Shown: positions 10,226-60,356 of the stretch, one piece after another
Layout of the letters: every line of letters begins with the position of its first letter
How positions within the stretch are numbered: position 1 is the stretch's first letter
Assembly (NCBI GenBank): GCA_016234935.1
Contig: JACRNL010000010.1
Location: 276,589-340,588, forward strand
DNA: 64,000 nt
Direction: 5' to 3'
Source of the DNA: Deltaproteobacteria bacterium
Lineage (GTDB): Bacteria > Desulfobacterota > GWC2-55-46
Notes under the pieces: model-generated
Database searches by the model: none
The model's input: only the letters and a program-made list of their open reading frames with translations
What the model was told of the DNA's origin: nothing
Position numbers and translations under genes: made by a program

Positions 10226-11299
10226 CTACGCCTCGCTGATAATCCGCCGTATCCTCTCCTGCGTCTCGGAAACGGTCTCAACGCCGGTATTGAGTATGTG
10301 GCAGGTGGCGGAATCGAACAGCTGTCTGAAAAACGCCTTTTGCACCTCCGGCCTTCTAACGAGAAGATATGGGTTGTAAAATGATTCGTATTTGAACTCT
10401 CCAACTTCTTTGCCCGCGCCGGCGAGGACCTGATACCTGCCCTCCTCAAGTATCCTTACCGCCGCGTCCTTCGACAGCTTCACCTCGGCCAAAGAGTCTT
10501 TGTCGCGCCTTAGAAGTATGACGGCCTTTACGACGGCCTCGTCAACGAACTTATCCGGCCCGGCGATCCAATCAGGGTCGAGGATGGCCCGGCTGTTGGC
10601 AAAGGCGGCAAAATCTCCGCCGTCGACATTTTCGCATTTGCACCTTTTAAGGAGCCGCTCGATATCGGGAAAACTCTTTACCATGTCCGTCCTGAGATAA
10701 AACTTCCTCTCGGAAATATCGGCCATTGTCAGGCCTTTTTTGTATTGCAGAAAAAGCCAATCGTCCGAATGTATCTTGCCGTCCGGCATCTGCATGAGGC
10801 CCCAGGTGTGCGTGGATTTGCCCGTGCCGGTGGGGGCTATTATCACAACGCCCTTGCCGCCTACTATGGCGCAGGAGCCGTGTATGGAATGAACGTTGTG
10901 CTGAGTTTCAAGTATGTCCGCGGCCATGCCGAGCGCCCAGGACTTGCACTGGCCGTAATATTCGGTATTGATGAAGACAGCCGTCTTTGTCTCGTGGTTG
11001 TAATAGGCGAAAGGCTTTTGCCCGGCAATGCCGGTTACCGCGTAGATGACCCCATGCGGCAGGATGTTGTGGCTTCTTGGCCCCGCATACCAGTTCTCAA
11101 CCCAGAAATCATACAGATGGGCGCTGTTTGTGACGAGCCTTACGACCACGCCGTGGATGTTTGCGTTCCAGTGGTATGCCTCGAAATTTTCAGACAGCTT
11201 TGCCTCCGCGAGCCTCACAAGCTCATCACGCTCGGCAACGCTTATGTCCTTTTTCGAATCAACGCGGCCCCGGACTTCGGTAATGTAGTTGGAGAGCAT
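10226..11299 (-). CDS. P-loop kinase of the PEPCK/HprK superfamily, function unknown
   Basis: Walker A GGKGVVIIAPTGTGKSTHTWGL followed by a GKIHSDDWLFL kinase-2-like motif. Start at MLSNY with an AAGGA RBS. Confidence 0.5.
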   Translation of the reverse strand: MLSNYITEVRGRVDSKKDISVAERDELVRLAEAKLSENFEAYHWNANIHGVVVRLVTNSAHLYDFWVENWYAGPRSHNILPHGVIYAVTGIAGQKPFAYYNHETKTAVFINTEYYGQCKSWALGMAADILETQHNVHSIHGSCAIVGGKGVVIIAPTGTGKSTHTWGLMQMPDGKIHSDDWLFLQYKKGLTMADISERKFYLRTDMVKSFPDIERLLKRCKCENVDGGDFAAFANSRAILDPDWIAGPDKFVDEAVVKAVILLRRDKDSLAEVKLSKDAAVRILEEGRYQVLAGAGKEVGEFKYESFYNPYLLVRRPEVQKAFFRQLFDSATCHILNTGVETVSETQERIRRIISEA

Positions 11300-11334
11300 A
11301 GGCATCCTTTCTGTTTTTCCATCAGGCCGCTCAA

Positions 11335-11480
11335 CGCAGCAAATGGGGCGCTTGAGGCAGCCTCTTAAGGGCAGGCTGCTCAAAAAGCCCCAGATGCAAG
11401 GAGTCGAGGAGTGAGGCGTGCTTTTTGGGCACGCCGCAGTGACGAATAACGAAGACAACGCCGCAGATGGGGCGCTTGAG
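11335..11480 (+). mobile_element. MITE-like ~125-bp TIR element, copy A, with an extra solo right-end fragment at its left
   Basis: AGGCTGCTCAAAAAGCCCC…GGCGTGCtttttggGCACGCC…GATGGGGCGCTTGAGGCAGCCT. It abuts the TAG stop of the RHH gene. Confidence 0.6.
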
Positions 11481-11488
11481 GCAGCCTG

Positions 11489-11698
11489 CTACGAAATCCT
11501 GCCCATCCTCGTCAGAAAGTCCCCCACGGCCACCCTGACCATCGCGCTTAGCGTCCATCTCTGTCCAAGCTTTTCCCTGTATTCAACAACAAGCGCCTTG
11601 AGGCTTTCGATCTGATCCTCTTCGAGCATCACGGTGAGCCTTTTCAACTCCTCGTGAGCGTCCTGCTTATGGGTTTTTTTCAGGGTCTTTTTAGCCAT
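11489..11698 (-). CDS. ribbon-helix-helix protein, ParD/CopG-like
   Basis: 69 aa with an RHH signature (…RLTVMLEEDQIESLKALVVEYREKLGQ…). Overlaps the LOG stop by 8 nt. Its stop codon is contiguous with MITE copy A. Confidence 0.55.
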   Translation of the reverse strand: MAKKTLKKTHKQDAHEELKRLTVMLEEDQIESLKALVVEYREKLGQRWTLSAMVRVAVGDFLTRMGRIS

Positions 11699-16554: not shown

Positions 16555-16650
16555 CCGGCACCACTTTGCGCTGCCAACGCCTGCCCTCGCATGTATGAAG
16601 CGGGGGTTTGTATTACGCATGAACTCTTAGCGACGGAAAGTGGTGCTGGG
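16555..16650 (+). repeat. hairpin-repeat family 2, copy 3 (CGGCACCACTTTGCG…CGGAAAGTGGTGCTGG), with a REP unit in its loop
   Basis: Inverted 13-15-nt arms. Lies ~19 nt upstream of the ppx start. Confidence 0.55.
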
Positions 16651-18386: not shown

Positions 18387-19850
18387 TCAAATGTTTCCAA
18401 AAATCTCAATCCCGCCTTCTCGCCCGCCTTTCCGCCCGCCTGCCATTTCCAGCATCAATATCTTTTTTGTCAGCCGCGTGACCTTGAACCTGTCCGACTG
18501 CTTCAGCCCCGCCAGCCATATGATCTCGGTTCCGGCGTAAACAACCGGCACAAGCGGCCTGAGGCGGGCGGGTATCTTTTCTTCTATCAGTATCTCCTTG
18601 AGCTTTTTGTGTCCGTCCATGCCGAAAGGGATCATCCTGTCGCCTGGTTTGATTGTCCGCGCCCGCACCGGCCCCGGCAGCAAGGCATAATCAAAATAAG
18701 CCGCGCCCCGGCCGCCCGTAAAGCCCTTTGCCGGAGGTTTTTTCAAGACCGTCGCCGATATAGACAACCCCTTGAAGGGGTTCAGCCCCCTGAGGGGGTT
18801 CAATCCCGCATCCTTTATCAGCGTCTTGCCGGGCGTTTTAACGGCAACGTCGAAGGATGCAGGTTTACCGGCCTTTTCTCTGGAGATTATCAGGCTGTTG
18901 TAAACACGCCTGAGGATAAGCCCGCCAGGAAGCGCGCAGGAGGCCGAGGGGCTCGCGGCTTTTACGATGGCAACGTATGCGTCGGCATGCGCGCTGCATA
19001 TCTGCGCGTCCTTTTCCAGAGACCAGACGGCGTCTAAAAAAACCCTTTTTGAAATGGCCGGATGGAGGGCCGAGAGTTTGAGCCTGTCCATGGAGACAAA
19101 ACCTCTTTTGCGCAGGGTGGCGGCGTCTGAAAAAGCGGCGGCGGCCCGGGCGCGCATGAACTCGCCGTCCTCTCTCAATATTCCGGCGGTGCGCGCAAGC
19201 GTCTCGATTATGTTGGGGTTGTAGCGTTTCTTTATAAACGGCAGGAGCCTGAGCCTCACGTCATTCCTTAGATAATCCATGCCGAGGTTGGACGAGTCCG
19301 TTACGTATTTAATGCCTTGTTCCGCGGCGAAACGTTCTATCTCCGCCCTTTGGCAGGCTATCAGCGGGCGTATGAAACGGCCCCGCACGGGAGCCATTCC
19401 GGCAAGGCCGCGAAGCCCGCTGCCCTTTAAAAACCTCATTAGCACAGTCTCGGCCTGGTCGTCCGCGTTGTGTCCAAGGGCTATCCTGGCCGCCCCGAAC
19501 CTCTCGGCCGCCGCACTCAGAAACTCAAGGCGCCTGTCCCTTGCCAAGGCCTGCAAAGACTCTCCGCGCTTCTTAAGCTCTCCGCGCTTAAGCGTGACGC
19601 CGGCGAATTCAAGCCCGCCGGCGGCGGCGAGCTTTTTCACAAAAAGAAAATCCCTTTTCGACTCAGCCCCGCGCAGGTTGTGGTTTACGTGGGCGACCAT
19701 AAGGGTAAGGCCAAGCCGGTCTTTAAGAGCCGAGAGCGCGCGGAGCAGCACAACGGAGTCAACGCCGCCGGACACGGCGACGAGGACGGACTCCCCCTTT
19801 TTAAGCATACCGAATTTACTAACGGTCTTTTTTACCTTTTCAATCAGCAT
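18387..19850 (-). CDS. tilS: tRNA(Ile)-lysidine synthetase
   Basis: PP-loop VAVSGGVDSVVLL. Start at MLIEK (the ORF track extends 17 codons further). The gene contains an in-frame REP-derived insert (see 18770-18812). Confidence 0.8.
   Translation of the reverse strand: MLIEKVKKTVSKFGMLKKGESVLVAVSGGVDSVVLLRALSALKDRLGLTLMVAHVNHNLRGAESKRDFLFVKKLAAAGGLEFAGVTLKRGELKKRGESLQALARDRRLEFLSAAAERFGAARIALGHNADDQAETVLMRFLKGSGLRGLAGMAPVRGRFIRPLIACQRAEIERFAAEQGIKYVTDSSNLGMDYLRNDVRLRLLPFIKKRYNPNIIETLARTAGILREDGEFMRARAAAAFSDAATLRKRGFVSMDRLKLSALHPAISKRVFLDAVWSLEKDAQICSAHADAYVAIVKAASPSASCALPGGLILRRVYNSLIISREKAGKPASFDVAVKTPGKTLIKDAGLNPLRGLNPFKGLSISATVLKKPPAKGFTGGRGAAYFDYALLPGPVRARTIKPGDRMIPFGMDGHKKLKEILIEEKIPARLRPLVPVVYAGTEIIWLAGLKQSDRFKVTRLTKKILMLEMAGGRKGGREGGIEIFGNI
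18770..18812. repeat. two tandem REP-like GC palindromic units inserted in-frame in tilS
   Basis: CAACCCCTTGAAGGGGTTCAGCCCCCTGAGGGGGTTCAATCCC encodes GLNPLRGLNPFKGL on the minus strand. Confidence 0.6.
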
Positions 19851-19990
19851 CGCAGCCCCGAAGGTGAAGGAGATTTGAGAGCGCGATATAATCACGCGCA
19901 TACTTAAAAACGTTTGAAAGACAGCTATAATTTACCGCATGCCGGACAATAAGGCAAATGCAGTTTGAAGCGTAAATATGATGCCCGCAC

Positions 19991-20112
19991 AGGCTGCTCA
20001 AAAAGCCACAGATACAAGGCGTCGAGAAGCAAGGAATGAGGCGTACGTTGTATGTACGCCGCAGTGACGAGCTACGAAGACAACGCGGTAGATGGGGCTT
20101 TTTCAGCAGCCT
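19991..20112 (+). mobile_element. MITE-like TIR element, copy B
   Basis: AGGCTGCTCAAAAAGCCAC…GGCGTACgttgtatGTACGCC…GATGGGGCTTTTTCAGCAGCCTG. Confidence 0.6.
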
Positions 20113-20185
20113 GTTAAAATTATTTGACTCTGAGGGGGATTCTGCCGCATTATATCTGAATAACGCAGAGGAACGGAGAGCGCAA

Positions 20186-20800
20186 ATGACAGACGCTTTG
20201 ATGACTGAACAAGACCTGAAGGACTACCTCACTGAAATCCTCATCTTCATGAATTCCTCCGCGGACTCTTTCGACAACAGGTGCGTGGGCGAGGCAAGAC
20301 GCCTTGCGGCGTGCATACGCATACTTGCCGAGGACACCGCCCAGTCGCGCTCGCTCCTCGGACAGCTCGGGCTTACAAACCTTTTTTTCTATGACGACGC
20401 GCCGGATTACAACCCTGAGCTGGGCCTTCCGTTCAGCGGCCTTGCCGTTGTGACGCTTGGAGGCAAGACACACAAGTACGCGGCCCGGCTTGACAACAAC
20501 GTCAGGTCAAAAACCCGGAAGGTCTCTTTTGACCAATGGTGGCATAAGCCCGTCATCGTGGACGAAAAGAGAAAGATGAGCCTTACGCGCCGAGACGTCA
20601 CGCTGGCCGTGGCAAGCGCGAATATCGGCGAGATAAACCCAAAGCTCACGGGGGCATTTGAAGAACTCCTGCGCAAGGAGTCGCGCGGCTGGATCACCGA
20701 TTCCACCGTTGTCCCGCTTGACATGATCGAGATCGAATACGCCAGCCTGAGGCAGATAGCCTTCGAGCTTTTGAACTCGCTCGAAGACCAGCTGAAGTAA
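20186..20800 (+). CDS. hypothetical protein (204 aa), no recognisable domain
   Basis: Start at MTDALMTEQ with a GGAGAG RBS. The ORF track begins 50 codons earlier inside MITE copy B. Flanked by MITE copies B and C. Confidence 0.5.
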   Translation: MTDALMTEQDLKDYLTEILIFMNSSADSFDNRCVGEARRLAACIRILAEDTAQSRSLLGQLGLTNLFFYDDAPDYNPELGLPFSGLAVVTLGGKTHKYAARLDNNVRSKTRKVSFDQWWHKPVIVDEKRKMSLTRRDVTLAVASANIGEINPKLTGAFEELLRKESRGWITDSTVVPLDMIEIEYASLRQIAFELLNSLEDQLK

Positions 20801-20956
20801 CGCATTTGAACGCCATTACTCCCCTGTGAAGGGGCTGAGCCCCCTCACAGGGGGTCTACCCCTGATAAACCTTTCCATAAACATGGCAACGCATCTTTCC
20901 TTACGGCATGAGGCGCATCTTCACGCCGTAAGGGAACAGTTTCATGCCATCTCAAT

Positions 20957-21190
20957 TTATTCCAGTATCACGTTGGTGAGCGTCTTTTTGACGTGATTTA
21001 TCTTCTGTATCTTCGAGATGACTACGTCGCCGAGGACCTTGAAGTTCGACGCGGCCACGAGGGCGATGAGATCGTACGGGCCTGTGACCACCCTCGCTTC
21101 CTTCACGCCGGCCACCTTCAACAGCTTCTCAAGGACATCCCTTGATTTCGCGTGCTCACATTCTATGAGCACATAGGCTTCAACTGACAT
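20957..21190 (-). CDS. stand-alone Lrp/AsnC C-terminal (RAM) domain protein
   Basis: 77 aa (MSVEAYVLIECEHAKSRDVLEKLLKVAGVKEARVVTGPYDLIALV…) with a RAM-domain fold signature. Confidence 0.55.
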   Translation of the reverse strand: MSVEAYVLIECEHAKSRDVLEKLLKVAGVKEARVVTGPYDLIALVAASNFKVLGDVVISKIQKINHVKKTLTNVILE

Positions 21191-21215
21191 GGTTCCTCCT
21201 TGCTATCCGTAAAAC

Positions 21216-21297
21216 GTAGTGCGAGGCTTCAGCCTCGCTGTTTTTTTTGCGGTTCACTTGCCTGATTACAACAGGCGAGGCTGAAGCCTCGCACTAC
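21216..21297. repeat. inverted pair of GTAGTGCGAGGCTTCAGCCTCGC hairpin units (repeat family 3); left unit followed by T8
   Basis: ACGTAGTGCGAGGCTTCAGCCTCGCTGTTTTTTTT … GCGAGGCTGAAGCCTCGCACTACGT. Related units at ~53300-53395 and ~56696-56725. Confidence 0.5.
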
Positions 21298-21310
21298 GTA
21301 AAACAGAACG

Positions 21311-21457
21311 CGGCAGATGACGCGCTTGAGGCACAGGCTGCTCAAAAAGCCCCAGCTACTATGCGACGAGGAGCGAAGAACGAGGCGTAGTGTGTCCTAC
21401 GCCGCAGTGATGAGCGACGAAGGCAACGACGTAGATGGGGCTTTTTCAGCAGCCTGC
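21311..21457 (+). mobile_element. MITE-like TIR element, copy C, preceded by a partial right-end fragment
   Basis: …CAGGCTGCTCAAAAAGCCCCAG…GGCGTAGtgtgtcCTACGCC…GATGGGGCTTTTTCAGCAGCCTGCTCA. The napC-like TGA stop lies in the last 3 nt. Confidence 0.6.
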
Positions 21458-21961
21458 TCAGTGGAATATCCCCTGATGACAATCAACACAGGTAGCCTTG
21501 CCCTCGGCAAGGAGCGTCGCGTGCGCGGCCTTGCCGAATACTGAAGACGGCTTCGGGTCTTTGTGGCAGTCCCTGCACGGGGAGCTGTCCCAGCCCTTTA
21601 TCTGCTCCCTCGCCTTTCTTGCGAATTCGTCCTTATATTTGTCAAACTTCTCTTTCGTGCTTAAATCATGCGTGAAGCTGCTTACCACGTCCTTCATGCC
21701 GGTGACGACATGCACCTTTACCTTGCCGATGAAATCCGGCGGAAAGTGGCAATCGCGGCACTCAGGGTTTATCCCGCGCGAGCCCCAGTGCGCCGATTTC
21801 TTAAGCCCCTCGTAGGGATAGGTCATGGAGTGGCACGACATGCAAAATCCGGTCGAACTGAAAAACCTCTCGCCGCATATGAACGCGTAATTCAATGCCA
21901 GAGCGGCCACGGCGGTGATAACGACGAGCCTCCAGTTCTCAAGCAAGATCCTCTTTAGCAT
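21458..21961 (-). CDS. NapC/NirT/CymA-family membrane tetrahaem cytochrome c (quinol dehydrogenase)
   Basis: Four CxxCH motifs (CMSCH, CRDCH, CRDCH, CVDCH) and an N-terminal TM helix. Confidence 0.85.
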   Translation of the reverse strand: MLKRILLENWRLVVITAVAALALNYAFICGERFFSSTGFCMSCHSMTYPYEGLKKSAHWGSRGINPECRDCHFPPDFIGKVKVHVVTGMKDVVSSFTHDLSTKEKFDKYKDEFARKAREQIKGWDSSPCRDCHKDPKPSSVFGKAAHATLLAEGKATCVDCHQGIFH

Positions 21962-28500: not shown

Positions 28501-28564
28501 GGCCGCCTTCAAGGCTTAAAATCCTTCATTTTACCGCCTTATGCCCGCCGAGGCTTAAAAACCT

Positions 28565-29461
28565 TCATTTTAACACCCTGTGCCCGCCGAACTCATGCCT
28601 TAATGCCGCGATGACCTTTGCGGAAAAGGCGTCGCCGCCCTGCCTGGACTGAAACCTCTGCAAAAGCGAAAGCGTTATCACCGGACACGGCACGTCCTTG
28701 TCCAGACTGTCAAGAACCGTCCAACGCCCCTCGCCTGAGTCTTCCACGTATGCCTTTACACCGTCGAGGGATGGATTTTCCTCGAACACGCGCCGGGCAA
28801 GCTCAAGTATCCACGAACGCACGACGCTCCCGCGGTTCCAGAGCTTTGAAACCCTTTCAAGGTCGAGCTTGAAGTCGGACGCGTGCATGAGGGCGAAGCC
28901 CTCGGCGTATGCCTCGATCATGCCGTATTCGATGCCGTTGTGTATCATCTTCACATAATGGCCCGCCCCGCTCGGCCCCATGAGGGCAAAGCCGTTTTCA
29001 GGGGCCAGAGTTTTAAACACGGGGGAGAGAGAGTCGAAGACCTTTTTTTCGCCGCCCGCCATTATGCAGTAGCCCTCGGTAAGCCCCCAGACGCCGCCCG
29101 ACGTGCCGACGTCAAGGAAGTTGACGCCCTTTTCACGAAGTGACGCGGCCCTTCGCATGGAATCTTTATACATGGAGTTGCCGCCGTCGACGATCGTGTC
29201 GTCCTTTGAAAGAAGCGGGGCGAGCCTTTCTATGGTCTCATCAACTGGCGCGCCCGAAGGGATCATTATCCACACCGCCCTCGGCCGGGCCAACTTTCCG
29301 GCAAGCTCTTCGATGGAGGACGCGCCTTGCGCCCCCTTTTCCACGGCCGCGGCTACGGCCGCGGCGCTGCGGTCATATGCGGCAACGGCGTGGCCGCCGA
29401 GGCAAAGCCTTGTGACCATGCTGAGTCCCATCCTGCCAAGCCCTATAAAGCCGAGTTCCAT
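28565..29461 (-). CDS. gnd: 6-phosphogluconate dehydrogenase (decarboxylating), short ~300-aa form
   Basis: MELGFIGLGRMGLSMV Rossmann N-terminus with an AAGGAGG RBS. The ORF track's N-terminal 43 codons lie in repeats. Confidence 0.85.
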   Translation of the reverse strand: MELGFIGLGRMGLSMVTRLCLGGHAVAAYDRSAAAVAAAVEKGAQGASSIEELAGKLARPRAVWIMIPSGAPVDETIERLAPLLSKDDTIVDGGNSMYKDSMRRAASLREKGVNFLDVGTSGGVWGLTEGYCIMAGGEKKVFDSLSPVFKTLAPENGFALMGPSGAGHYVKMIHNGIEYGMIEAYAEGFALMHASDFKLDLERVSKLWNRGSVVRSWILELARRVFEENPSLDGVKAYVEDSGEGRWTVLDSLDKDVPCPVITLSLLQRFQSRQGGDAFSAKVIAALRHEFGGHRVLK

Positions 29462-29480: not shown

Positions 29481-29577
29481 GCCTGCCCTTTGAAAGGGTT
29501 CAACCCTCCCCAGCGCCACTTTCCGGCGCCGACATTTTTATTAGATACATATGCTGATAACGGAAAGTGGCGCTGGG
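29481..29577 (+). repeat. REP unit plus hairpin-repeat family 2 copy 1 (CCAGCGCCACTTTCCG-[AT-rich 33 nt]-CGGAAAGTGGCGCTGG)
   Basis: Lies directly upstream of the gnd start. Near-identical copy at 30813-30908. Confidence 0.6.
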
Positions 29578-29712
29578 CTGCCCATCCCATGAAGAGGATT
29601 TAAAAACAACGTAAAATTCCGCAAAGCTCAATTGATTAATAGCTTAAAGATAGCAGAGAAGGCGAGGAAAGGCAACTGCGCAAGGACGTTTTCCCGCCCT
29701 CGGCGCATGGGA

Positions 29713-30735
29713 TTAAAATTGCAGATTAGGCCTGAGGATGATCTGGAAGTTGTCGCGATTTTCCCTATCCTCAAGAACGCCCGTGTATTTTAACGCACCC
29801 TCCCAGATAAAGCCCACGGCCATGGAAAAGGCAATCTTTTTTTCATTGTAAGGCCACTTCTTGTCGACCGTGAAGTAGTGCCGCACTGGTTTTAACGTCC
29901 TGTTATCCATGTCAAAGATATATTCAAAGCCGGCGTTCTTAAAAAAGGTGTCGGGCGAACCCTCATAGTCCACAAAGCTCCTTCTGAGCGCTATGTAAAT
30001 GACGTCCTTTATGTCACGGTTCGAATGGAGCTTTTCCCCCACGCGAAAGCTCCAGCTAAGCGTATGGGTGGGGAACTTCCTGTCCCCCTTAATCTTCCAC
30101 TCCAGCTCTACCGAACTGTCCTTGATGAGCCTGTTGTCCTTTATGTGCTGGTCGCCTATGCTGACGAGATACCCCATGTAGCCGAAGTTGCCGCTCCTGT
30201 GCTTTTCGCCGGGGCTCGTGAAACTGACGACGTTGCCCATGAAAAACGAAAGGGCATAGGGCTCTTCAAAGCCTGCGGTCACGGCCTTTATCAGGTTGAG
30301 GTTGTCTGAGACCTTCGCGCCCCTGTATACGTCATTCGCGTTGCTTCTGGCGGCAACGCCCGCGACAGGCATGGGGAATACCGCCGCTTCAACGACAAGA
30401 TATCTGGGGATGTAGGAGCTTAAAAACAGGTCTCTGTATATCTGAAACTCAGGCTTTGTGCCTGCGTCTGGAATCGGCTGGTCGGTGAGATTTACGATAA
30501 TCGAGGCGTTAGTGTAATACGGGTCAAGCTCGTATTCAAAACTATAACCCTTTTCTTCCTTGCCGGCCGTCACGGCCTTTTCCTGCCCTCGCGTGTTTAA
30601 AGCGGGGGTCTGAGGCATTGCCTCATCTTTTGAGACTAAAACAGCCTCCTGGGCGTAGGCGCACGGCTGTCCAACGCACACGAGGACAAAAAGCGAAACC
30701 GCACAAAGAATCCTGCAATGGAAAGAATCCCTCAT
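29713..30735 (-). CDS. hypothetical outer-membrane protein (signal peptide, C-terminal …LRPNLQF beta-barrel signature)
   Basis: Start at MRDSFHCRILCAVSLFVLVCVGQPCAYA. Terminal aromatic residue typical of OMPs. Confidence 0.45.
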   Translation of the reverse strand: MRDSFHCRILCAVSLFVLVCVGQPCAYAQEAVLVSKDEAMPQTPALNTRGQEKAVTAGKEEKGYSFEYELDPYYTNASIIVNLTDQPIPDAGTKPEFQIYRDLFLSSYIPRYLVVEAAVFPMPVAGVAARSNANDVYRGAKVSDNLNLIKAVTAGFEEPYALSFFMGNVVSFTSPGEKHRSGNFGYMGYLVSIGDQHIKDNRLIKDSSVELEWKIKGDRKFPTHTLSWSFRVGEKLHSNRDIKDVIYIALRRSFVDYEGSPDTFFKNAGFEYIFDMDNRTLKPVRHYFTVDKKWPYNEKKIAFSMAVGFIWEGALKYTGVLEDRENRDNFQIILRPNLQF

Positions 30736-30812
30736 GATGTAACGAATTCTCTCCGCCAGACCTGTGTGATAAATCATACCGCCTAAAGGGCCAGCCATAA
30801 CTGCCTCTCAAG

Positions 30813-31015
30813 CCTGCCCTTTGAAAGGGTTCAGCCCTCCCAAGCGCCACTTTCCGGCGCCAACATTTTTATTAGATACATATGCTGATAACGGAAAGTG
30901 GCGCCGGGCTGCCCTCGCATGTCCCCCGCTTAAAACCCCCGCTTTAGACCTGCGAGGGCAGGCGTGCGGGGGTTGAACCCCTTCAAGGGGCAGGCTGAAG
31001 CGGGGGTTTAAAACC
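30813..31015 (+). repeat. cluster of REP-like units (CCTGCCCTCGCATG / CCCCCGCTTAAAA / GGGTTGAACCCCTTCAAGGGG) plus family-2 hairpin copy 2
   Basis: Direct reading shows several inverted GC palindromes without the regular spacing of a CRISPR array. Confidence 0.6.
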
Positions 31016-31227: not shown

Positions 31228-31707
31228 TTATAGAGGTGTCGGCGCTGGAGCCGGTGTCGGCGCCGGCGCCGGCGCCGGAGTTGGAGCTGGAGCCGGAACA
31301 GGCGCAGGCGCTGGTTTTTCACCCATTACCGTTATCTCAAGCTGGCATTCCTTGCATGATTCGACCTCTACCTCAAGCTCGTTATCCGCCTTGAGCGTCA
31401 CGTTGTAGCTCAGCGTGTCGACCTTCTTGCTGAAGTCCTTTTGCCGCGCCACCTTCACGTCGTTCAACTCTATTGTCGCGCTCGATACCCTGAAAGACTT
31501 GCCTGATTCGCCGCCGTTCTTCACGACTATGACCCCGCTGCCTGCTACCGGGGCCGTGAAGTGGAAGGTCGTCTTCTTGTCATGCTTGGAATGTTCGCGC
31601 TTTACAACGTAGACAGGCCCGTAGATCGTGCCCATCTCGGCAAGCGCCGCGCCCGCCGACGCGAGGGTTAAAGCAACTACCGATGCCAGCAAGAATAATC
31701 TTTTCAT
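31228..31707 (-). CDS. secreted protein ending in a (Pro-Ala)n/Thr/Val repeat tail
   Basis: Signal peptide MKRLFLLASVVALTLASAGAALA with an AAGGAGG RBS. C-terminus PAPAPVPAPAPTPAPAPAPTPAPAPTPL, encoded by a GCNCCN microsatellite at ~31235-31320. Confidence 0.55.
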   Translation of the reverse strand: MKRLFLLASVVALTLASAGAALAEMGTIYGPVYVVKREHSKHDKKTTFHFTAPVAGSGVIVVKNGGESGKSFRVSSATIELNDVKVARQKDFSKKVDTLSYNVTLKADNELEVEVESCKECQLEITVMGEKPAPAPVPAPAPTPAPAPAPTPAPAPTPL

Positions 31708-32115
31708 ACGAAATTCCTCCTTACTAAGGTTTTTTATTCTCAAGCTGTGTATATATCGCGGATGACGCCACATGCATATTATAGCTGATTTATAGCATGA
31801 GGCCGGATTTCACACAGTGACTAAAGCTACCAAACGAATTTAATTTTCCTGCAAGGGGATTTTCACGCCTGCCCTCGCGTGTCCCCCGATAGAAACATTC
31901 GAGGGCAAGCTAAAGCGGGGGGTGGAATAAATCCCGCGAAATTGCCGCCCGGACATTGCCGGGCCGGTCATGAGACGCGAAAAACCTGAACTTTAACAGA
32001 CCTTGACAAACCTTGACCTGCTGATATTCTTTGAATAGTCAGCATCCCGCGCCATACAGCCCGGCACACCCCCTTGCCCCCACGACCAAATACACCGGAC
32101 AGACAAACGGTAAAT

Positions 32116-32862: not shown

Positions 32863-35050
32863 ATCTGAAGATCTCATTAAAAAAATAGAAGCGTTTAAAA
32901 CAGAGCTTGCAAAAAAGCAAGCCGAGCTTGAGAAGGCATGGGCGCAGGAAAAGGAACTCAAAGATACCTCGCGCGCGATGCTCAACCTCCTTGACGACCT
33001 GAACAAATCCTCCGCTAACATGGAGGCGGCGAAAAAGGACTGGGAGACGACCTTTGACGCGATGCTTGACCCGGTATTCATCCACGACAGCCGGTTCAGG
33101 GTAGTCCGGGCCAACAGGGCCTATCAGGAGGCGGCGGGGCTTGCATTTCACGACATTATAGGCATGCCCTATTACGAAGTATTTCCGAAAACTCAGAGCG
33201 GCCCTTGCAAGGGCTGCTTAAAGGCCATCGAACCCGGAATCGAGGAAAAGGAAGAGATTTACATCCCTCAGACGGGCAAGACATTCAAGATGCTGTTTTA
33301 TGCCATGAAAGACGCTGCCGGCAAGCAACTATGCGGGCTGCACGTCATGGAGAACATAACGGACGTAAAGAAGGCCGAAGATGCGATGCGGCGGGAATTG
33401 GAGATTATAAGGCATCTGCTTATGATATCCAACGCCGCCGCCCGTACCACGGATATAGACAGGCTTATGGAGCAGGTGGTCTCCTGCCTGAACACAATCA
33501 TGTCGAGCGATATCGCATTGTCCTATCTCTGGGACGGGGAAGGCGGCGCATTCCTGCCAAGCCATGCAACAGGACTGTCCCACGAACAGACGTCGCTGTT
33601 TTTGACGGAGCATATCGGCGGCAATGACGCCGTTGTTAAAAAGGCATTCAATGGACACGCGGCGATAATCGGAAAAGAAACCCTGACGGCCGAGGGGCCG
33701 GGGACAGACGCGCTCAAAAGGCTTTTTTCGCGGGAAACACGGCTTGAATCGCTGGCCGTGATACCTCTTTACGGCAGGCTCGGCCCCCTCGGCCTTTTAA
33801 TATGCGCGTATACGGGACTCAATCCGAAAGGCGCCGAGGCGTTGGAACGGATGCCGGAAGAACTGATGAACGGCATCGGCTCTCAGGTGTCAACCGCGCT
33901 CGACGAGGCGCGGGTATACAGGGAGTCAACCAACAAATCAATGGAGCTCTCCCACAAGATAGAAACCATAAAGATCATGCACGAAATAGACAAACATGTG
34001 CTTTCCACCCTGGAACCGCAGGAGATACTCGACACGGCCGTGCTGATGATCTCAAAGATAATACCGTGCGACAGGGTAACGGTGGTTCTCGTTGACAGGG
34101 CCAGGGGCGGCTTTTCACTAATCGCCGGATTCGGCACTAAAAACAGGTTCGCGCCGTTTGAAGATACAAACGCATCCGAGATATTGAAGACCGGACGGCT
34201 GCAATACGCGGCGGACCTGCGCGAAATCGGGGATATCAAGCCTCTTGAAAAAAGCCTCCTTGACGAAGGCTTCATATCGCATATCAGGATGCCCCTTACC
34301 GTAAAGGGCGAGATATCGGGGATTTTGACCGTGGGGTCAAGGCACGCCTCGGCGTATACGCCTGAAGACCTTTCAACCATGGAAAAGCTCGCGTCCCAGA
34401 TAAGCGTGGCGCTTGAGAACGCGCGGCTCGTTAAAGACCTCGAAGAGCTTTTCATCGGGATAGTGAGGACGCTGTCAAAGGTCATAGACACGAAAAGCCC
34501 CTGGACGCAGGGCCATTCGGAGCGGGTCACCGAATACGCGCTTGAAATAGGCCGAGCCATGGGCATGGGCAAAACGCAGCTCAAGCGGTTAGAGCTTGCC
34601 GGCCTGCTTCACGACATCGGCAAGATAGGGACTTACGAAGCCATACTCGACAAGCCCGGCAGGCTGAGCGACGAAGAGCTTGAAATAATGAAGCGGCATC
34701 CGTCCGCAGGCGCTGAAATACTCCAGCCCATAAAGCAGCTTGCGGACGTAGTCTCCGTAATAAAATGCCACCATGAATTTTACGACGGAAGCGGATATCC
34801 GGACGGGATCAAAGGCGAGAGCATCCCGTTGATGGCGCGTATGCTCACCGTGGCCGACGCGGTCGACGCGATGAGCGCGGACAGGCCTTACAGAAAAGGC
34901 AAGCCCGCAAGCGCCATCATGCAGGAGCTTAAAAGATGCTCCGGCACGCAATTCGACCCGGCCGTGGCCAAGACATTCCTCTCCATCATTGAGGCCAAAT
35001 GGCAAGGGGCTGCGCCCCCTCAGGGGGCCGAACCCCCTCAGGGGGCGTGA
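32852..35050 (+). CDS. PAS-GAF-GAF-HD-GYP protein (c-di-GMP phosphodiesterase family)
   Basis: HD motif LLHDIGKI and HHEFYDGSGYP (HD-GYP). The C-terminal tail QGAAPPQGAEPPQGA is encoded by REP palindromes. Confidence 0.85.
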   Translation: MGVESEDLIKKIEAFKTELAKKQAELEKAWAQEKELKDTSRAMLNLLDDLNKSSANMEAAKKDWETTFDAMLDPVFIHDSRFRVVRANRAYQEAAGLAFHDIIGMPYYEVFPKTQSGPCKGCLKAIEPGIEEKEEIYIPQTGKTFKMLFYAMKDAAGKQLCGLHVMENITDVKKAEDAMRRELEIIRHLLMISNAAARTTDIDRLMEQVVSCLNTIMSSDIALSYLWDGEGGAFLPSHATGLSHEQTSLFLTEHIGGNDAVVKKAFNGHAAIIGKETLTAEGPGTDALKRLFSRETRLESLAVIPLYGRLGPLGLLICAYTGLNPKGAEALERMPEELMNGIGSQVSTALDEARVYRESTNKSMELSHKIETIKIMHEIDKHVLSTLEPQEILDTAVLMISKIIPCDRVTVVLVDRARGGFSLIAGFGTKNRFAPFEDTNASEILKTGRLQYAADLREIGDIKPLEKSLLDEGFISHIRMPLTVKGEISGILTVGSRHASAYTPEDLSTMEKLASQISVALENARLVKDLEELFIGIVRTLSKVIDTKSPWTQGHSERVTEYALEIGRAMGMGKTQLKRLELAGLLHDIGKIGTYEAILDKPGRLSDEELEIMKRHPSAGAEILQPIKQLADVVSVIKCHHEFYDGSGYPDGIKGESIPLMARMLTVADAVDAMSADRPYRKGKPASAIMQELKRCSGTQFDPAVAKTFLSIIEAKWQGAAPPQGAEPPQGA
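35005..35050. repeat. REP-like palindromes forming the 3' end of the HD-GYP gene
   Basis: GGGGCTGCGCCCCCTCAGGGGGCCGAACCCCCTCAGGGGGCGTGA. Confidence 0.55.
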
Positions 35051-35494: not shown

Positions 35495-37336
35495 ATGTTT
35501 CTGCCGACGACAAAAGAGGAGATCGAGGGGCTTGGCTGGAAGGGCCTCGATATAATACTGGTAACGGGCGACAGTTATATTGACTCGCCCTACGTCGGAG
35601 TGGCCGTAATCGGAAAGATCCTCCTTGACTCCGGGTACAAGGTCGGAGTTATCGGTCAACCGGAAACAAGTTCTGACGTCGACATCAGGCGCCTCGGCGA
35701 GCCTCGGCTCTTCTGGGGCGTTACGGGCGGCTGCATCGACTCCATGGTCGCCAACCGCACGGCTACAGGCCGCAGACGTAACCGCGACGACTATACCCCC
35801 GGCGGCGTAAACAACCGGCGTCCTGACAGGGCCGCCATCGCCTACACCAATCTCATCAAAAGATATTATAAAAAAGATACCCGCCCTATTGTCCTGGGAG
35901 GTATCGAAGCAAGTCTGCGCCGGACAGCCCATTATGATTTCTGGACAGACACTATAAGAAGGTCAATCCTCTTTGACACGAAAGCCGATTATCTTCTTTA
36001 TGGGATGGCGGAGCGCTCCGCTGTCGAACTCGCCGGATGTATAAAGGACGGGAAAGACCCCCGGAGTGTGCGCGGACTTTGCTATATCTCCAAAGATATT
36101 CCTGATGGCTGTCTGGAACTCCCTTCATTCCAGGAATCTGCGCAGGACAAGGACGCTTTCACAAGGTCATTCCACACAGTCTACAATAACAACGATCCGG
36201 CGACGGCCGTGGCATTGGCTCAAAGACAGGACACCCGTTATCTCATCCAGAACCCTCCGGCGCCCTATCTCTCTCAGAAGGAACTTGACAGGGTATACGG
36301 CCTGGGATATGAACGGGACGCTCACCCCTACCACCGTAAGGATGGCGAGGTAAAGGTCCTTGAGACGATCCGCTTCTCCATTTCCTCGCACCGCGGATGT
36401 TACGGTGAATGCAGTTTTTGCGCCATCGCCGTCCATGAAGGCCGCCGCGTGAGGAGCAGAAGCAAGGCCTCTATCCTTGCCGAGGCAAAGGAGATGACGC
36501 GGCACCCCCTTTTCAAGGGAAGGATAAATGATGTGGGCGGGCCATCGGCCAATATGTACGGCACAGGTTGTGAGAGGATGGAAAAACAGGGCTGCTGCCC
36601 GAAAAAGAGCTGCATCTCCCCGCAAGTCTGTCCCAGGCTCAATTTTGGCCACGCAGAGCAGTTATCGCTCCTTAAGGCGCTGCGCGGCGTCGATGGAGTC
36701 CAAAAGGTTGTCGTTGCGTCGGGACTGAGACACGACCTGGTACTGGCGGATAAAAACGAGGGAGAGCGGTACCTTAAGGAGCTTGTCCTCCACCACGTCT
36801 CCGGACAGATGAAGATAGCCCCCGAACACTCGGAGGCAAGCGTGCTTCGGCAGATGGGCAAGCCTAACTGCGACCAGAACGCCCTTATAAAGTTCAAGGA
36901 GCTCTTTTACAAATTTACGAAGGAGGCAGGGTTGAGCCAGTTTTTAACCTACTACCTGATGGCCGCCCATCCCGGCTGCGGCGAGGACGATATGGCAAGG
37001 CTGAGGTCATTTGCTTTGAAAGAGCTGGGCAGACTGCCGGAGCAGGTACAGGTATTTACGCCCACCCCGTCGACATATTCCACCCTGAGCTACTGGACCG
37101 GGTGCGACCCCTTTACCGGCAAGCCCTGTTTTGTGGAAAAGAGCGCCAGAGGCAGGGAAGCGCAGAAGTCCATACTAACAGGCCCATGTATCAAGAAAGA
37201 GAAGAAAGAAGCGTTTGACCCTAAAAGGTTGCTGAAAAACTCAAAATTTGTTCAGGCTCTCAAATCTTCCCATTGCAATAATAAGGACGCAATGGGAACC
37301 CAGCCAGATGCGAGGCGTCGAGGAAGCGACGAATGA
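35495..37336 (+). CDS. ygiQ: YgiQ-family radical SAM protein (UPF0313)
   Basis: MFLPTTKEEIEGLGWKGLDIILVTGDSYIDSPY… matches the YgiQ N-terminal domain. CYGECSFC is a Cx3Cx2C motif. The last ~12 codons (…TQPDARRRGSDE*) are supplied by MITE copy D. Confidence 0.85.
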   Translation: MFLPTTKEEIEGLGWKGLDIILVTGDSYIDSPYVGVAVIGKILLDSGYKVGVIGQPETSSDVDIRRLGEPRLFWGVTGGCIDSMVANRTATGRRRNRDDYTPGGVNNRRPDRAAIAYTNLIKRYYKKDTRPIVLGGIEASLRRTAHYDFWTDTIRRSILFDTKADYLLYGMAERSAVELAGCIKDGKDPRSVRGLCYISKDIPDGCLELPSFQESAQDKDAFTRSFHTVYNNNDPATAVALAQRQDTRYLIQNPPAPYLSQKELDRVYGLGYERDAHPYHRKDGEVKVLETIRFSISSHRGCYGECSFCAIAVHEGRRVRSRSKASILAEAKEMTRHPLFKGRINDVGGPSANMYGTGCERMEKQGCCPKKSCISPQVCPRLNFGHAEQLSLLKALRGVDGVQKVVVASGLRHDLVLADKNEGERYLKELVLHHVSGQMKIAPEHSEASVLRQMGKPNCDQNALIKFKELFYKFTKEAGLSQFLTYYLMAAHPGCGEDDMARLRSFALKELGRLPEQVQVFTPTPSTYSTLSYWTGCDPFTGKPCFVEKSARGREAQKSILTGPCIKKEKKEAFDPKRLLKNSKFVQALKSSHCNNKDAMGTQPDARRRGSDE

Positions 37337-37413
37337 GGCGCACTTTGTTGTGCGCCGTTCGTTCCGAGTGACGACGACAACGAAGCAGATGGGCGTTTTT
37401 CAGCAGCCTGCTG
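37300..37413 (+). mobile_element. MITE-like element, copy D (left TIR missing)
   Basis: …CCAGATGCGAGGCGTCGAGGAAGCGACGAATGAGGCGCACtttgttgGTGCGCC…GATGGGCGTTTTTCAGCAGCCTG. Confidence 0.55.
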
Positions 37414-37478
37414 AAAGACATGTCCTTAAAAGGGCCCAATTCAGGGTAAAGGGGAGATAAAACAAGAGGACGGCATCT

Positions 37479-43314: not shown

Positions 43315-43460
43315 CAAATCCCCTCTAATGTCCGATAGTGTAGTGCGGCGCCCCCGCTTCAGACCTGCGAGGGCAGGCTTTAGCGCCGCCGAACGAGACG
43401 CTGGAGCGTCCAAGGCTGCTTTCCCATGCCGGAGCGTGGGAAAGATAAAAGAAAGGATGA

Positions 43461-52284: not shown

Positions 52285-52298
52285 TAGCCGCCTTCTTA

Positions 52299-52433
52299 GC
52301 AGACTGCTGAAAAAGCCCCATCTACCGCGTTGTCTTCGTCGTTCGTCACTGCGGCGCACCCAAAAGTGCGCCTCACTCCTCACTCCTCGACGCCTTGTGT
52401 CTGGGGCTTTTTGAGCAGCCTGCCGGTTTCAGC
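52299..52433 (-). mobile_element. MITE-like TIR element, copy E (inverted orientation)
   Basis: The reverse complement matches the consensus, with hairpin GGCGCACttttggGTGCGCC. Lies between the MAT start and the queH 3' end. Confidence 0.6.
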
Positions 52434-52999
52434 AACCTCTTAGAGTATCTTTCTATTTTACTGTAAATACAGCCGCAATACTTCTGCCTGTAAAGCCCCA
52501 TCTCCTTTGACGCGTCTATGCCTGCCTGCCAACCGCCGCGGTAGTCCGCGTAGAAAAAAGGAATGCCATACTTCCGGGAAAGTGTAAGCCCAATGGCCTT
52601 TATCCCGTCATGGTTCTGGTATCTGCTGTATAAAAGGGAAGAAGAAAAACCGTCAAAACCGTTTGCGAGGGCCGTCTTCGCGGTCTCCTCAAGCCTTGAT
52701 GAGTAGCAATAGCCGCAGCGGCCGTCTTTCTCGGGAAGGCCTTTTTTTCCGCTAAATTTTGCGGCTTCCTTAACGCCTTTTATAAAGGCCGTCGGCCTAT
52801 ACACCTCGTCGAATATGACGTTTACGCCAAGAAGCGCAGCGAGCCTTTTTGCCGCATCAAGCCTTTTTTTGAATTCGGAAAACGGATGGATGTTCGGATT
52901 ATGAAAAAACCCCCAGACGTCAGGCCGAGAGGCGCCGTGGCCGTGGCCGAGCATGGCCTTAATCGGAATGATGGAACACGGCCCGCAGCACATATGCAC
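52373..52999 (-). CDS. queH: epoxyqueuosine reductase QueH (DUF208)
   Basis: …LVHMCCGPCS…FFHNPNIHPFSEF…LYRQKYCGCIYS… are QueH motifs. Start uncertain (GTG/ATG near HMCC), since the upstream ORF-track residues lie in a REP repeat. The last ~20 codons and the stop lie inside MITE copy E. Confidence 0.7.
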   Translation of the reverse strand: MHMCCGPCSIIPIKAMLGHGHGASRPDVWGFFHNPNIHPFSEFKKRLDAAKRLAALLGVNVIFDEVYRPTAFIKGVKEAAKFSGKKGLPEKDGRCGYCYSSRLEETAKTALANGFDGFSSSLLYSRYQNHDGIKAIGLTLSRKYGIPFFYADYRGGWQAGIDASKEMGLYRQKYCGCIYSKIERYSKRLLKPAGCSKSPRHKASRSEE

Positions 53000-53019
53000 A
53001 AGGACGCGGCCCGCCCCCG

Positions 53020-53095
53020 CTTCAGCCTGCCCTCGCGTGTTTTTAGCGGGGGACACGCGAGGGTTGAACCCTTTCAAAGGGCAGGCAAAGACGAC
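53020..53095. repeat. REP-like units (GCCTGCCCTCGCGTG…AGCGGGGGACACGCGAGGGTTGAACCCTTTCAAAGGGCAGGC)
   Basis: Same palindrome family as at 975-1040, 17775-17830, 30905-31015, 31860-31925 and 43335-43385. Confidence 0.55.
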
Positions 53096-53401
53096 TCCGC
53101 CCGTGTTATCCGCGTTGGCCGGTCCTGACAGCGGCGTTATTATGGAAAGGTCTTTATTCACCGTAAAAACGCACCCGTAAAACGACGGCACGCATGTATT
53201 AACATTAGCTCAGAAATCCGTGATTGTATAGCCACATCCGGTAAAAGCAACTTAAAATTTTTAACGGGAAGATTCCAGCCTGACAAGCCGTTTATGGTTT
53301 ATCGTCCCCGTAGTGCGACACTTCAGTGTCGCCTTGTCGTTGAAACAACAGCTCGGTAGAAGCCTCGCACTACAATCTTTCTAATAACCGGCAAGCCGCC
53401 T

Positions 53402-60267: not shown

Positions 60268-60356
60268 CCCTGTCCTGTCGCTGCGTTTGCCGCCTGCCTC
60301 GCGAGAAGCGCGGGGGCTGGAGCCCCTTCAAGGGGCTCGGCCCCTTCAAGCGGATG

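Follow-up and report, generated by a model that had tools for sequence, protein, structure and literature searches.

Foldback repeats bearing the termini of ISAzs10-like IS5 elements in a Deltaproteobacteria genome and in other phyla

What kind of entity is a short, hairpin-forming sequence that recurs five times within 64 kb of a bacterial genome, what might move it, and why do its arms still pair? The question is posed by a 64,000-nt stretch – here the window – of Deltaproteobacteria bacterium contig JACRNL010000010.1 (assembly GCA_016234935.1, positions 276,589 to 340,588 of the forward strand), in which a first-pass annotation, made from the letters alone, had pointed to five copies (A to E) of a ~125-bp element with inverted repeats and an internal hairpin. 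Our data indicate that these repeats are most probably a non-autonomous MITE (a transposable element of the miniature inverted-repeat type) that uses the machinery of the ISAzs10-like subgroup of IS5-family insertion sequences (ISs), a subgroup marked by a DUF772 N-terminal domain, a DDE domain and a match to transpos_IS5_4.

The repeat itself is beyond dispute. On direct reading it is present at all five places, essentially at the positions first given, with a mean column identity of 79% in a MAFFT alignment. A covariance model (R1) – built from 32 family members and applied, with filters off, to the window in full – gave 127.6 bits to E, 127.0 to B, 122.2 to C, 101.4 to A and 57.1 to D; over the same window it found no sixth copy, all else scoring at most 17 bits, which is the level of a generic hairpin. 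The terminal 19-mer, allowing up to three mismatches, matches the window eight times against 0.05 expected from dinucleotide-preserving shuffles, and none of 100 shuffles reached eight. Whole copies fold end to end as a single hairpin of ~124 nt: the RNA fold of copy B has an energy of -58.3 kcal/mol (z = -7.2 and -7.6 on its two strands), and folds of A, C and E with DNA parameters give z = -4.6 to -5.3 (E alone -4.66). Unit sizes in the window span 117-186 nt.

Anatomy, ends and target duplications

A critical issue is where the element ends. The pair of ~19-nt inverted repeats at first taken for its termini proved to be the arms of an internal foldback, of which the right arm alone is a transposon end. 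An intact element is ~150 nt long and asymmetric, comprising an outer left inverted repeat (IR; ~CAGGTTGCTGAAAAACTC), a spacer of 10-14 nt and the ~124-nt foldback. The 3' arm of the foldback is the right IR, GGGGCTTTTTCAGCAGCCTG; the 5' arm repeats that IR internally in inverted orientation, usually departing from it at position 10, where the inner copy almost always carries C (CAGGCTGCTCAAAAAG). The outer IR – a short second IR of the IS type, often found 10-14 nt to the left of the inner arm with YTAR before it – can be paired with the right IR (complement: CAGGCTGCTGAAAAAGCCCC) in E, in D and in 30 of 64 family copies. The true left boundary of the element thus stands ~28 nt to the left of the hairpin.

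The flanking tetranucleotides point to the same ends. YTAR follows the right arm TTTTTCAGCAGCCTG (CTAA in 13, CTAG in 8, CTAC in 5, TTAG in 5 and TTAA in 5 of 64 copies) and likewise forms the left flank of the outer IR; no YTAR stands before the inner left arm. In the 30 copies with an outer IR the two flanks are identical at all four positions in ten cases and match at three or more in 21, as compared to none identical and one with at least three matches when the flanks are shifted by 5 nt. Copies that have no outer IR show no duplication around the inner arm. That the signal is more than a target preference is clear because the duplication at one locus (L017), TTGG/TTGG, is not YTAR. Being short, devoid of a transposase gene, bounded by terminal inverted repeats (TIRs) and target duplications, and dispersed in many copies, the repeat belongs to the class of non-autonomous, non-coding MITEs, as the first-pass annotation had proposed.

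IS5-type termini and the reach of the family

The nature of the machinery is indicated by the termini. The outermost 16-20 nt of the MITE (CAGGCTGCTGAAAAAG...) are the ends of ISAzs10-like elements of the IS5 family, and not of the IS630 or IS200/IS605 partners suggested at the outset. The 20-mer bounds an IS of 1303-1309 bp with inverted ends in three Acetobacteraceae metagenome-assembled genomes (MAGs; L011, L051 and L083): it is identical to both ends in L083, and in L011 and L051 it matches one end exactly and the other with at most two mismatches. The open reading frame (ORF) of these ISs encodes an IS5-family transposase (NCBIfam transpos_IS5_4, 260 bits; Pfam DUF772 and DDE_Tnp_1), and among named elements the nearest to them is ISAzs10 (Azospirillum sp. 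B510), with ends CAGGCCGCGGAAAAAGGGC and CAGGACGCGGAAAAAGGCT and TTAG on both sides. A metagenome scan with an alignment of six transposases gave more than 585 relatives, from which 80 loci were kept; 65 of these could be delimited as ISs of 1.25-1.35 kb whose ends are CAGGCTGCTGAAAAA... and ...TTTTTCAGCAGCCTG or closely similar; almost every one has CTAG or another YTAR at its flanks, and the 16-mer is their common terminus. The exact 20-mer recurs across phyla because an IS5 subgroup of very wide distribution has these termini as its canonical ends. IS5 of E. coli, a member of the same family, also duplicates 4 bp at YTAR and has different IRs (GGAAGGTGCGAATAAG).

What the MITE shares with the ISAzs10-like ISs is thus the terminal sequence and the 4-bp duplication of CTAG or YTAR; the ISs differ in their length, in encoding a transposase, and in lacking any detectable similarity to the MITE past the IR. 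On this basis we infer mobilisation in trans: an IS5-type transposase supplied from elsewhere would bind the two outer IRs and insert the element at YTAR tetranucleotides, duplicating 4 bp. The window holds no such enzyme – a tblastn search with the cognate IS5 transposase found no match in the 64 kb, as had been noted from the start – and no recurrent transposase-like ORF lies beside the foldbacks in the sampled loci. Neither does the interior appear as a deletion derivative of a parent IS, there being no similarity past the IR in the ~70 IS copies examined. The parent IS may simply be unsampled.

One conceivable origin of the foldback found no support. In the ISAzs10-like ISs (L083 4490-4633, L011, L051 and L098) the codons of the conserved N-terminal GLFSYV motif, GGNCTTTTCAGCTACGTG, are located ~100 nt inward of the left IR, to which they show partial complementarity. 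In L051 the fold of lowest energy includes this pairing, but the folds of the IS ends are no better than shuffles (z = -0.3 to +0.8), which leaves a leader hairpin of the parent IS unsupported as the source of the foldback. Similarity between the inner arm or spacer of the MITE and the 5' coding region of the IS is not significant overall (p mostly 0.01-0.5). We also encountered other multicopy sequences that end in the same 20-mer and have a quite different interior (e.g. ...GGTGAAATGGCGGCCATGTGCCTTCGAAATGGCAGTCGGGGGCTTTTTCAGCAGCCTG) in a Polyangiaceae MAG (L021, L029, L041, L059, L069 and L073) and in a Roseovarius MAG (L033 and L074). They probably represent distinct MITE families sharing these IS5 termini.

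In bacteria a MITE family is as a rule limited to one species or genus. The distribution of the present family is wider. A scan of one genome per species for GGGGCTTTTTSAGCAGCCTG gave at least 97 stretches, and all locus counts given here refer to the matches listed. Around half of the stretches are from MAGs of groundwater 'Deltaproteobacteria'; the others come from Nitrospirota, NC10, Binatia, Acidobacteriota, Polyangiaceae, Firmicutes (Sedimentibacter), Desulfovibrio, Planctomycetota, Omnitrophota and Alphaproteobacteria. Within the 97 listed loci R1 made 114 matches, many loci being matched on both strands, which amount to at least 50 distinct copies, with several copies per MAG. Strong matches on one strand were obtained from 'Deltaproteobacteria' MAGs, Nitrospirota (L009, L058, L084, L050, L040 and L003), Acidobacteriota (L032), NC10 (L042 and L052), Binatia (L007), Desulfovibrio (L096) and Firmicutes (L064, which is Sedimentibacter hydroxybenzoicus DSM 7310, with L020, L024, L031, L075 and L082). 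Across phyla the foldback is mostly 121-126 nt long, although extra small hairpin modules extend some copies up to ~285 nt, and besides the arms the family has in common CCAGATGCAAGGC, a central GCGTAC-loop-GTACGC hairpin and AACGNNGCAGATGGGG. Given this shared interior and length, the foldbacks of different phyla are homologous and not convergent. A foldback that crosses phyla with identical termini points to very widely shared specificity among IS5 transposases and to repeated horizontal spread.

Searches for a prior description support the novelty of the family. Rfam gave no gathering-score match in the window and nothing on the element at E-values up to 10 within 19900-21600, which answers the Rfam check that the first-pass annotation had asked for; a blastn search of the plasmid collection in distant mode, with copy E as query, found no match; and no description of the family was present in Rfam or in the literature searched on MITE, IS5 and phylum topics, where the terminal sequence was met only in unrelated primers. 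The earlier statement that this is not a named family therefore stands for the exact family, although a characterised relative of the same type does exist in MITEPsy1.

MITEPsy1 of Pseudomonas syringae is 100 nt long, with the IR GGAAGGTCTGAAAAAGCC, 18-nt TIRs and a 4-nt CTAG/YTAA duplication; it was assigned to the IS5-family element ISPsy2 and was trapped while transposing (PMC3189936). Its range covers one P. syringae genomospecies together with scattered gammaproteobacterial relatives (PMC3189936). Like the window family it is small and non-coding, and the two have in common the inner 11 nt of the IR (CTGAAAAAGCC) and the 4-nt target; moreover, its insertion near the 3' ends of genes also changes the C-termini of proteins. 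Alone among the relatives it has been shown by experiment to move, and it is the closest that has been characterised. The differences, as judged from the description of MITEPsy1, are that its TIRs are simple, whereas the window family is ~150 nt long, asymmetric and present in many phyla; the outermost bases differ too, being CAGGCTG in the window family and GGAAGGT in MITEPsy1. We regard the repeat as an unnamed new member of the IS5-family MITEs that is unusual in its spread across phyla, its asymmetric foldback and its compensated hairpin.

Two further candidates were considered and set aside. Chunjie, of Geobacter uraniireducens, resembles the repeat in being a deltaproteobacterial MITE with a stable hairpin; its description gives 178-235 bp, A+T-richness, 21-bp TIRs and 9-bp direct repeats (PMC3184786). 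On that description identity is ruled out by the 9-bp direct repeats and the A+T-richness, and the length of the duplication points to another transposase family. Integron attC sites were likewise rejected, given that no RYYYAAC stands by the left arm, many right flanks are GCTAG and not GTTRRRY, and the copies are scattered among housekeeping genes.

Pairing of the arms and rival explanations

Evidence that the hairpin is more than a trace of recent copying came firstly from the central stems, which the first-pass annotation had read correctly and which pair in every copy: GGCGTGC/GCACGCC in A, GGCGTAC/GTACGCC in B, GGCGTAG/CTACGCC in C and GGCGCAC/GTGCGCC in D and E. Extended to a 32-sequence alignment with 33 consensus pairs, the analysis shows standard pairs in 95% of cells and double-sided changes at 13 of the 33 pairs, as compared to 5.1 +/- 1.4 in shuffles (none of 500 reaching the observed value). 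When partners are displaced by 1 to 3 columns, these control pairings have much lower scores than the true one. Pairing is actively maintained in the family. The suggestion that compensatory changes reflect selection for structure thus holds as far as the maintenance of pairing is concerned; selection at the level of RNA does not follow from it.

Several observations weigh against the account of a MITE mobilised by an IS5-type transposase. No autonomous partner was found in the window or among the sampled deltaproteobacterial loci, a tblastn search of the 97 listed loci gave no autonomous parent, the foldback is absent from all 80 metagenomic copies of the IS subgroup, and the similarity between MITE and IS ends after ~16-20 nt. 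No empty-site polymorphism was found, the one orthologous site available (in L004, below) being occupied in both genomes, and within the window neither outer IR nor duplication is seen in A, B and C, three copies of the five. Both flanks independently prefer YTAR, which somewhat inflates their identity. Finally, the deep conservation of the foldback, with covariation, exceeds the strict needs of a decaying selfish element, and its forward strand is the more stable in 40 of 50 copies.

Could a different machinery, or a different level of selection, account for these features? REPINs and bacterial interspersed mosaic elements (BIMEs) are built on repetitive extragenic palindromic (REP) sequences, palindromic units of 20-40 nt with GTAG or CGTC heads, make no target duplication, are usually species-specific and are tied to a RAYT gene. 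The window family resembles these ~100-nt elements in that long hairpins are formed by two inverted copies of a short sequence (here of ~20 nt) and lie between genes in high copy number; moreover YTAR beside one hairpin arm only looked at first like one-sided target recognition. Movement of a REP or REPIN by a RAYT (an IS200/IS605-like Y1 enzyme), or of an IS200/IS605 palindrome-associated element beside a fixed tetranucleotide, is nonetheless scarcely credible: once the outer IR is counted, YTAR and matching 4-nt duplications stand at both ends, and neither REPINs nor IS200/IS605 elements make any; the termini belong to DDE-type IS5 elements, with IRs that REPINs lack, and begin CAGG rather than GTAG or CGTC. 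A second proposal leaves the termini as a mere vehicle and has the hairpin kept by selection on a functional structured RNA, such as a stabiliser of 3' untranslated regions, a processing site or a small RNA. To this end one may cite, besides the covariation, the fact that the forward strand, which runs from the inner arm (5') to the true end (3'), is the better-folding one in those 40 of 50 copies, with a mean difference of -5.6 kcal/mol (Wilcoxon p = 6.5e-6), that it carries 162 G-U pairs against 95 on the complement, that the strand bias is seen in several phyla, that conservation across phyla extends to a length of ~122-125 nt and to the central CGTAC...GTACG hairpin, and that many copies lie directly behind stop codons. 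Yet orientation relative to the flanking genes is not significantly biased: among 60 copies both neighbours are reverse, and so antisense to the better-folding strand, in 21 and both forward, or sense, in 13, the remainder including 17 copies between convergent and 3 between divergent genes. In the window, genes enter A and C from the true end (reverse) and D and E from the outer IR (forward). There is, moreover, no Rfam match and no U-tract after the hairpin; the excess of G-U pairs stems mostly from a few columns in which a left-arm T faces the G-run of the right IR; and the copies are related, so that tests on them are not independent. The asymmetry of G-U pairs needs no selection on RNA, because a right IR constrained by the transposase together with transitions in the C-run of the left arm would yield the same. 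We consider a host RNA function improbable.

The compensatory changes may instead be mechanical, one arm being copied onto the other by mismatch correction or template switching during extrusion or replication, in which case the hairpin would perpetuate itself. Such correction between arms is known for inverted repeats in general, and the possibility deserves to be taken seriously, if tentatively. In four of the 32 aligned copies (L022, L058, L063 and L097) the right IR carries the position-10 variant of the inner arm, TTTTTGAGCAG, as if converted, which suggests that information passes between the arms; the central-stem variants of the window copies are all compensated, with no uncompensated intermediate; and the lack of orientation bias counts on the same side. 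Against this, G-U states are still numerous in the family and some A-C states are present too, so that correction must be inefficient, and the C-C mismatch at position 10 is kept in most copies, which speaks against thorough homogenisation. Our preference is for a hairpin kept as a structural property of the DNA – whether by correction from arm to arm or through a need in propagation – over one kept for a function in host RNA. It is doubtful, and yet of interest, that the ~124-nt foldback is a conserved functional module, carried between at least six phyla, rather than a passive by-product. Were it so, the module might be needed for propagation, to present or protect the right end, or it might be exploited by the host as an RNA or DNA hairpin behind stop codons; and the asymmetric design, with its conserved mismatch at position 10, would represent a new MITE architecture with a mechanistic role. 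The family also offers a natural data set on which to ask whether compensatory changes in palindromic DNA repeats are selected or mechanical.

Copies, neighbouring genes and other repeats in the window

Coordinates of the copies and their parts are collected in Table 1.

Table 1. Features of the repeat family in the window (positions in the 64,000-nt window; TSD, target-site duplication)
Feature	Position	Strand	Evidence
Copy A, 117-nt foldback, variant right end GGGGCGCTTGAGGCAGCCTG	11372-11488	+	R1 101 bits, DNA fold
32-nt direct copy of A's right end, 94% identical	11332-11363	+	Repeat search
Copy B, 124-nt foldback only	19990-20113	+	R1 127 bits, RNA fold
Copy C, 123-nt foldback	21334-21456	+	R1 122 bits, DNA fold
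Partial right-end fragment, variant ...GATGACGCGCTTGAGGCA, joined straight to C's left arm	21306-21333	+	
Copy D, complete but rearranged MITE	37225-37410 (hairpin unit 37253-37410)	+	R1 match 37283-37410
30-nt palindromic module TCCCATTGC...GCAATGGGA in the A-tract of D's left arm	37268-37297	+	Own 10-bp hairpin
Copy E, only complete MITE in the window	52300-52439	-	Sequence, R1 127.6 bits
TSD TTAG, left of E on + strand	52296-52299	.	Identical to 52440-52443, 4/4
TSD TTAG, right of E on + strand	52440-52443	.	Identical to 52296-52299, 4/4

Among the five copies the outer IR is kept only in E and D. In E, the true end CAGACTGCTGAAAAAGCCCC at 52300 opens a 123-nt foldback (52300-52422); beyond it come a spacer of 4 nt and, at 52427-52439, an outer IR in shortened form (GAGGTTGCTGAAA, read on the element strand). 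Copy D, once thought to lack its left end, has a left arm from 37253 onwards that is split by the palindromic insert: the outer IR AAGGTTGCTGAAAAACTC (37225-37242) is an exact outer-IR match, the inner arm CAGGCTCTCAAA begins at 37253, the true end ...TTTTTCAGCAGCCTG closes at 37410, and the flanks CTAA (37221-37224) and CTGA (37411-37414) agree at three of four positions. D is 78% identical to an element of the same variant in locus L002. E is therefore intact and D intact with a nested insert, while A, B and C are either relics that consist of the foldback alone or copies that have been rearranged, and have probably lost their mobility; in B no outer IR is recognisable and the flanks, CGCA on the left and TTAA on the right, show no duplication.

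The partial right-end fragments that had been reported 5' of A and C are both present: in each case a direct copy, 28-32 nt long, of a variant right end, GCGCTTGAGGCAGCCT, precedes the foldback. The fragment upstream of A lies 124 nt 5' of A's own right end, with CTTAAGGG between fragment and left arm. The simplest reading of this arrangement would be tandem insertion followed by deletion. The variant right end GGGGCGCTTGAGGCAGCCT (the usual form being GGGGCTTTTTCAGCAGCCT) occurs three times, at 11346-11363, 11470-11487 and 21320-21333; it has no exact match among 99 loci and could be the end of a sister element.

The palindromic module inside D is also found within elements at seven related loci (L002 1680-1709; L015 634-663 and 3942-3971; L049 5109-5138; L057 7103-7132; L065 359-388; L079 2583-2612; L088 5843-5872). 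Its place within the element varies: in D and L002 it is found in the A-tract of the left arm, and in L015, L057 and L088 it adjoins the central stem. The module may be an even smaller, insertion-prone hairpin element.

The copies lie among housekeeping genes, often at or next to stop codons and the 3' ends of genes, presumably because TAA and TAG lie within YTAR. Of 62 true ends followed by YTA, 22 abut the stop codon of an open frame of at least 80 codons. With convergent gene pairs common (17 of 60 copies) and divergent promoter regions rare (3), such placement is typical of MITEs. The CTA flanking A (11489-11491) is the TAG stop of a minus-strand ORF, 11489..11698; in C a single base (21457) separates the true end from the TGA (21458-21460) of a minus-strand gene for a NapC/NirT cytochrome. 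Copy B sits where tilS (minus strand, start 19901) and a plus-strand gene (ATG at 20186) diverge, and 15 nt separate the true end of E from the downstream start codon of an archaeal-type S-adenosylmethionine synthetase gene. Two genes end inside an element: a radical-SAM (Radical_SAM_N) gene (35495-37336, plus strand) within D and queH (52373-53191, minus strand) within E. The last ~37 codons of the former and ~22 of the latter are element-encoded, in the same frame (...KRLLK...), as expected if insertion hit the last dozen or so codons. For annotation the consequences are practical: the element is abundant in uncultured bacteria of groundwater and sediment, where it breaks assemblies, gives rise to false ORFs and changes the 3' ends of genuine genes. 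A 1.8-kb Logan contig ends inside copy B.

A single orthologous site provides a comparison. The MAG L004, with genes ~70% identical in nucleotide sequence and syntenic with the window over 5.6-12.3 kb, has an element at the place of A, directly behind the stop codon of the orthologous small ORF, so that the site is filled in both genomes; this could be an old common insertion or a hot spot. A gene of 357 aa (10226-11299, minus strand; no Pfam match), which lies between A and the next conserved gene, is missing from L004 (812-1275). This difference is a one-gene insertion or deletion directly beside the element.

The window contains further repeats. A second, unrelated family with the core CCTGCCCTCGCGTGTTTAAAGCGGGGG is present at 979-1032, 16560-16614, 30562-30616, 30923-30976, 31872-31921, 43351-43389 and 53006-53063, in both orientations, with some members forming close inverted pairs (30582-30616 with 30928-30962); it resembles a REP- or MITE-like hairpin family in its own right. 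A third family, of GGGGTTGAACCCCTTCAAGGGGC-type palindromes (18755-18807, 30966-31003, 35006-35050, 53057-53086 and 60311-60340), often adjoins the second, for example at ~30.9 kb and 53.0 kb. Directly upstream of C (21213-21302) stands a near-perfect hairpin of ~90 nt, GTAGTGCGAGGCTTCAGCCTCGC ... GCGAGGCTGAAGCCTCGCACTAC, one arm of which recurs at 53343-53373; its Rfam matches are only sub-threshold and miRNA-precursor-like, the behaviour of a generic hairpin. A 103-nt direct repeat with inverted-repeat arms (29481-29583 and 30812-30914; 96% identical, 1331 nt apart) and a tandem pair of 39-nt units (28512-28589) were also seen, together with a GC-rich repeat at 31235-31314 with a period of 6, 12 or 18 nt (GGTGTCGGCGCTGGAGCC...), presumably a low-complexity coding repeat.

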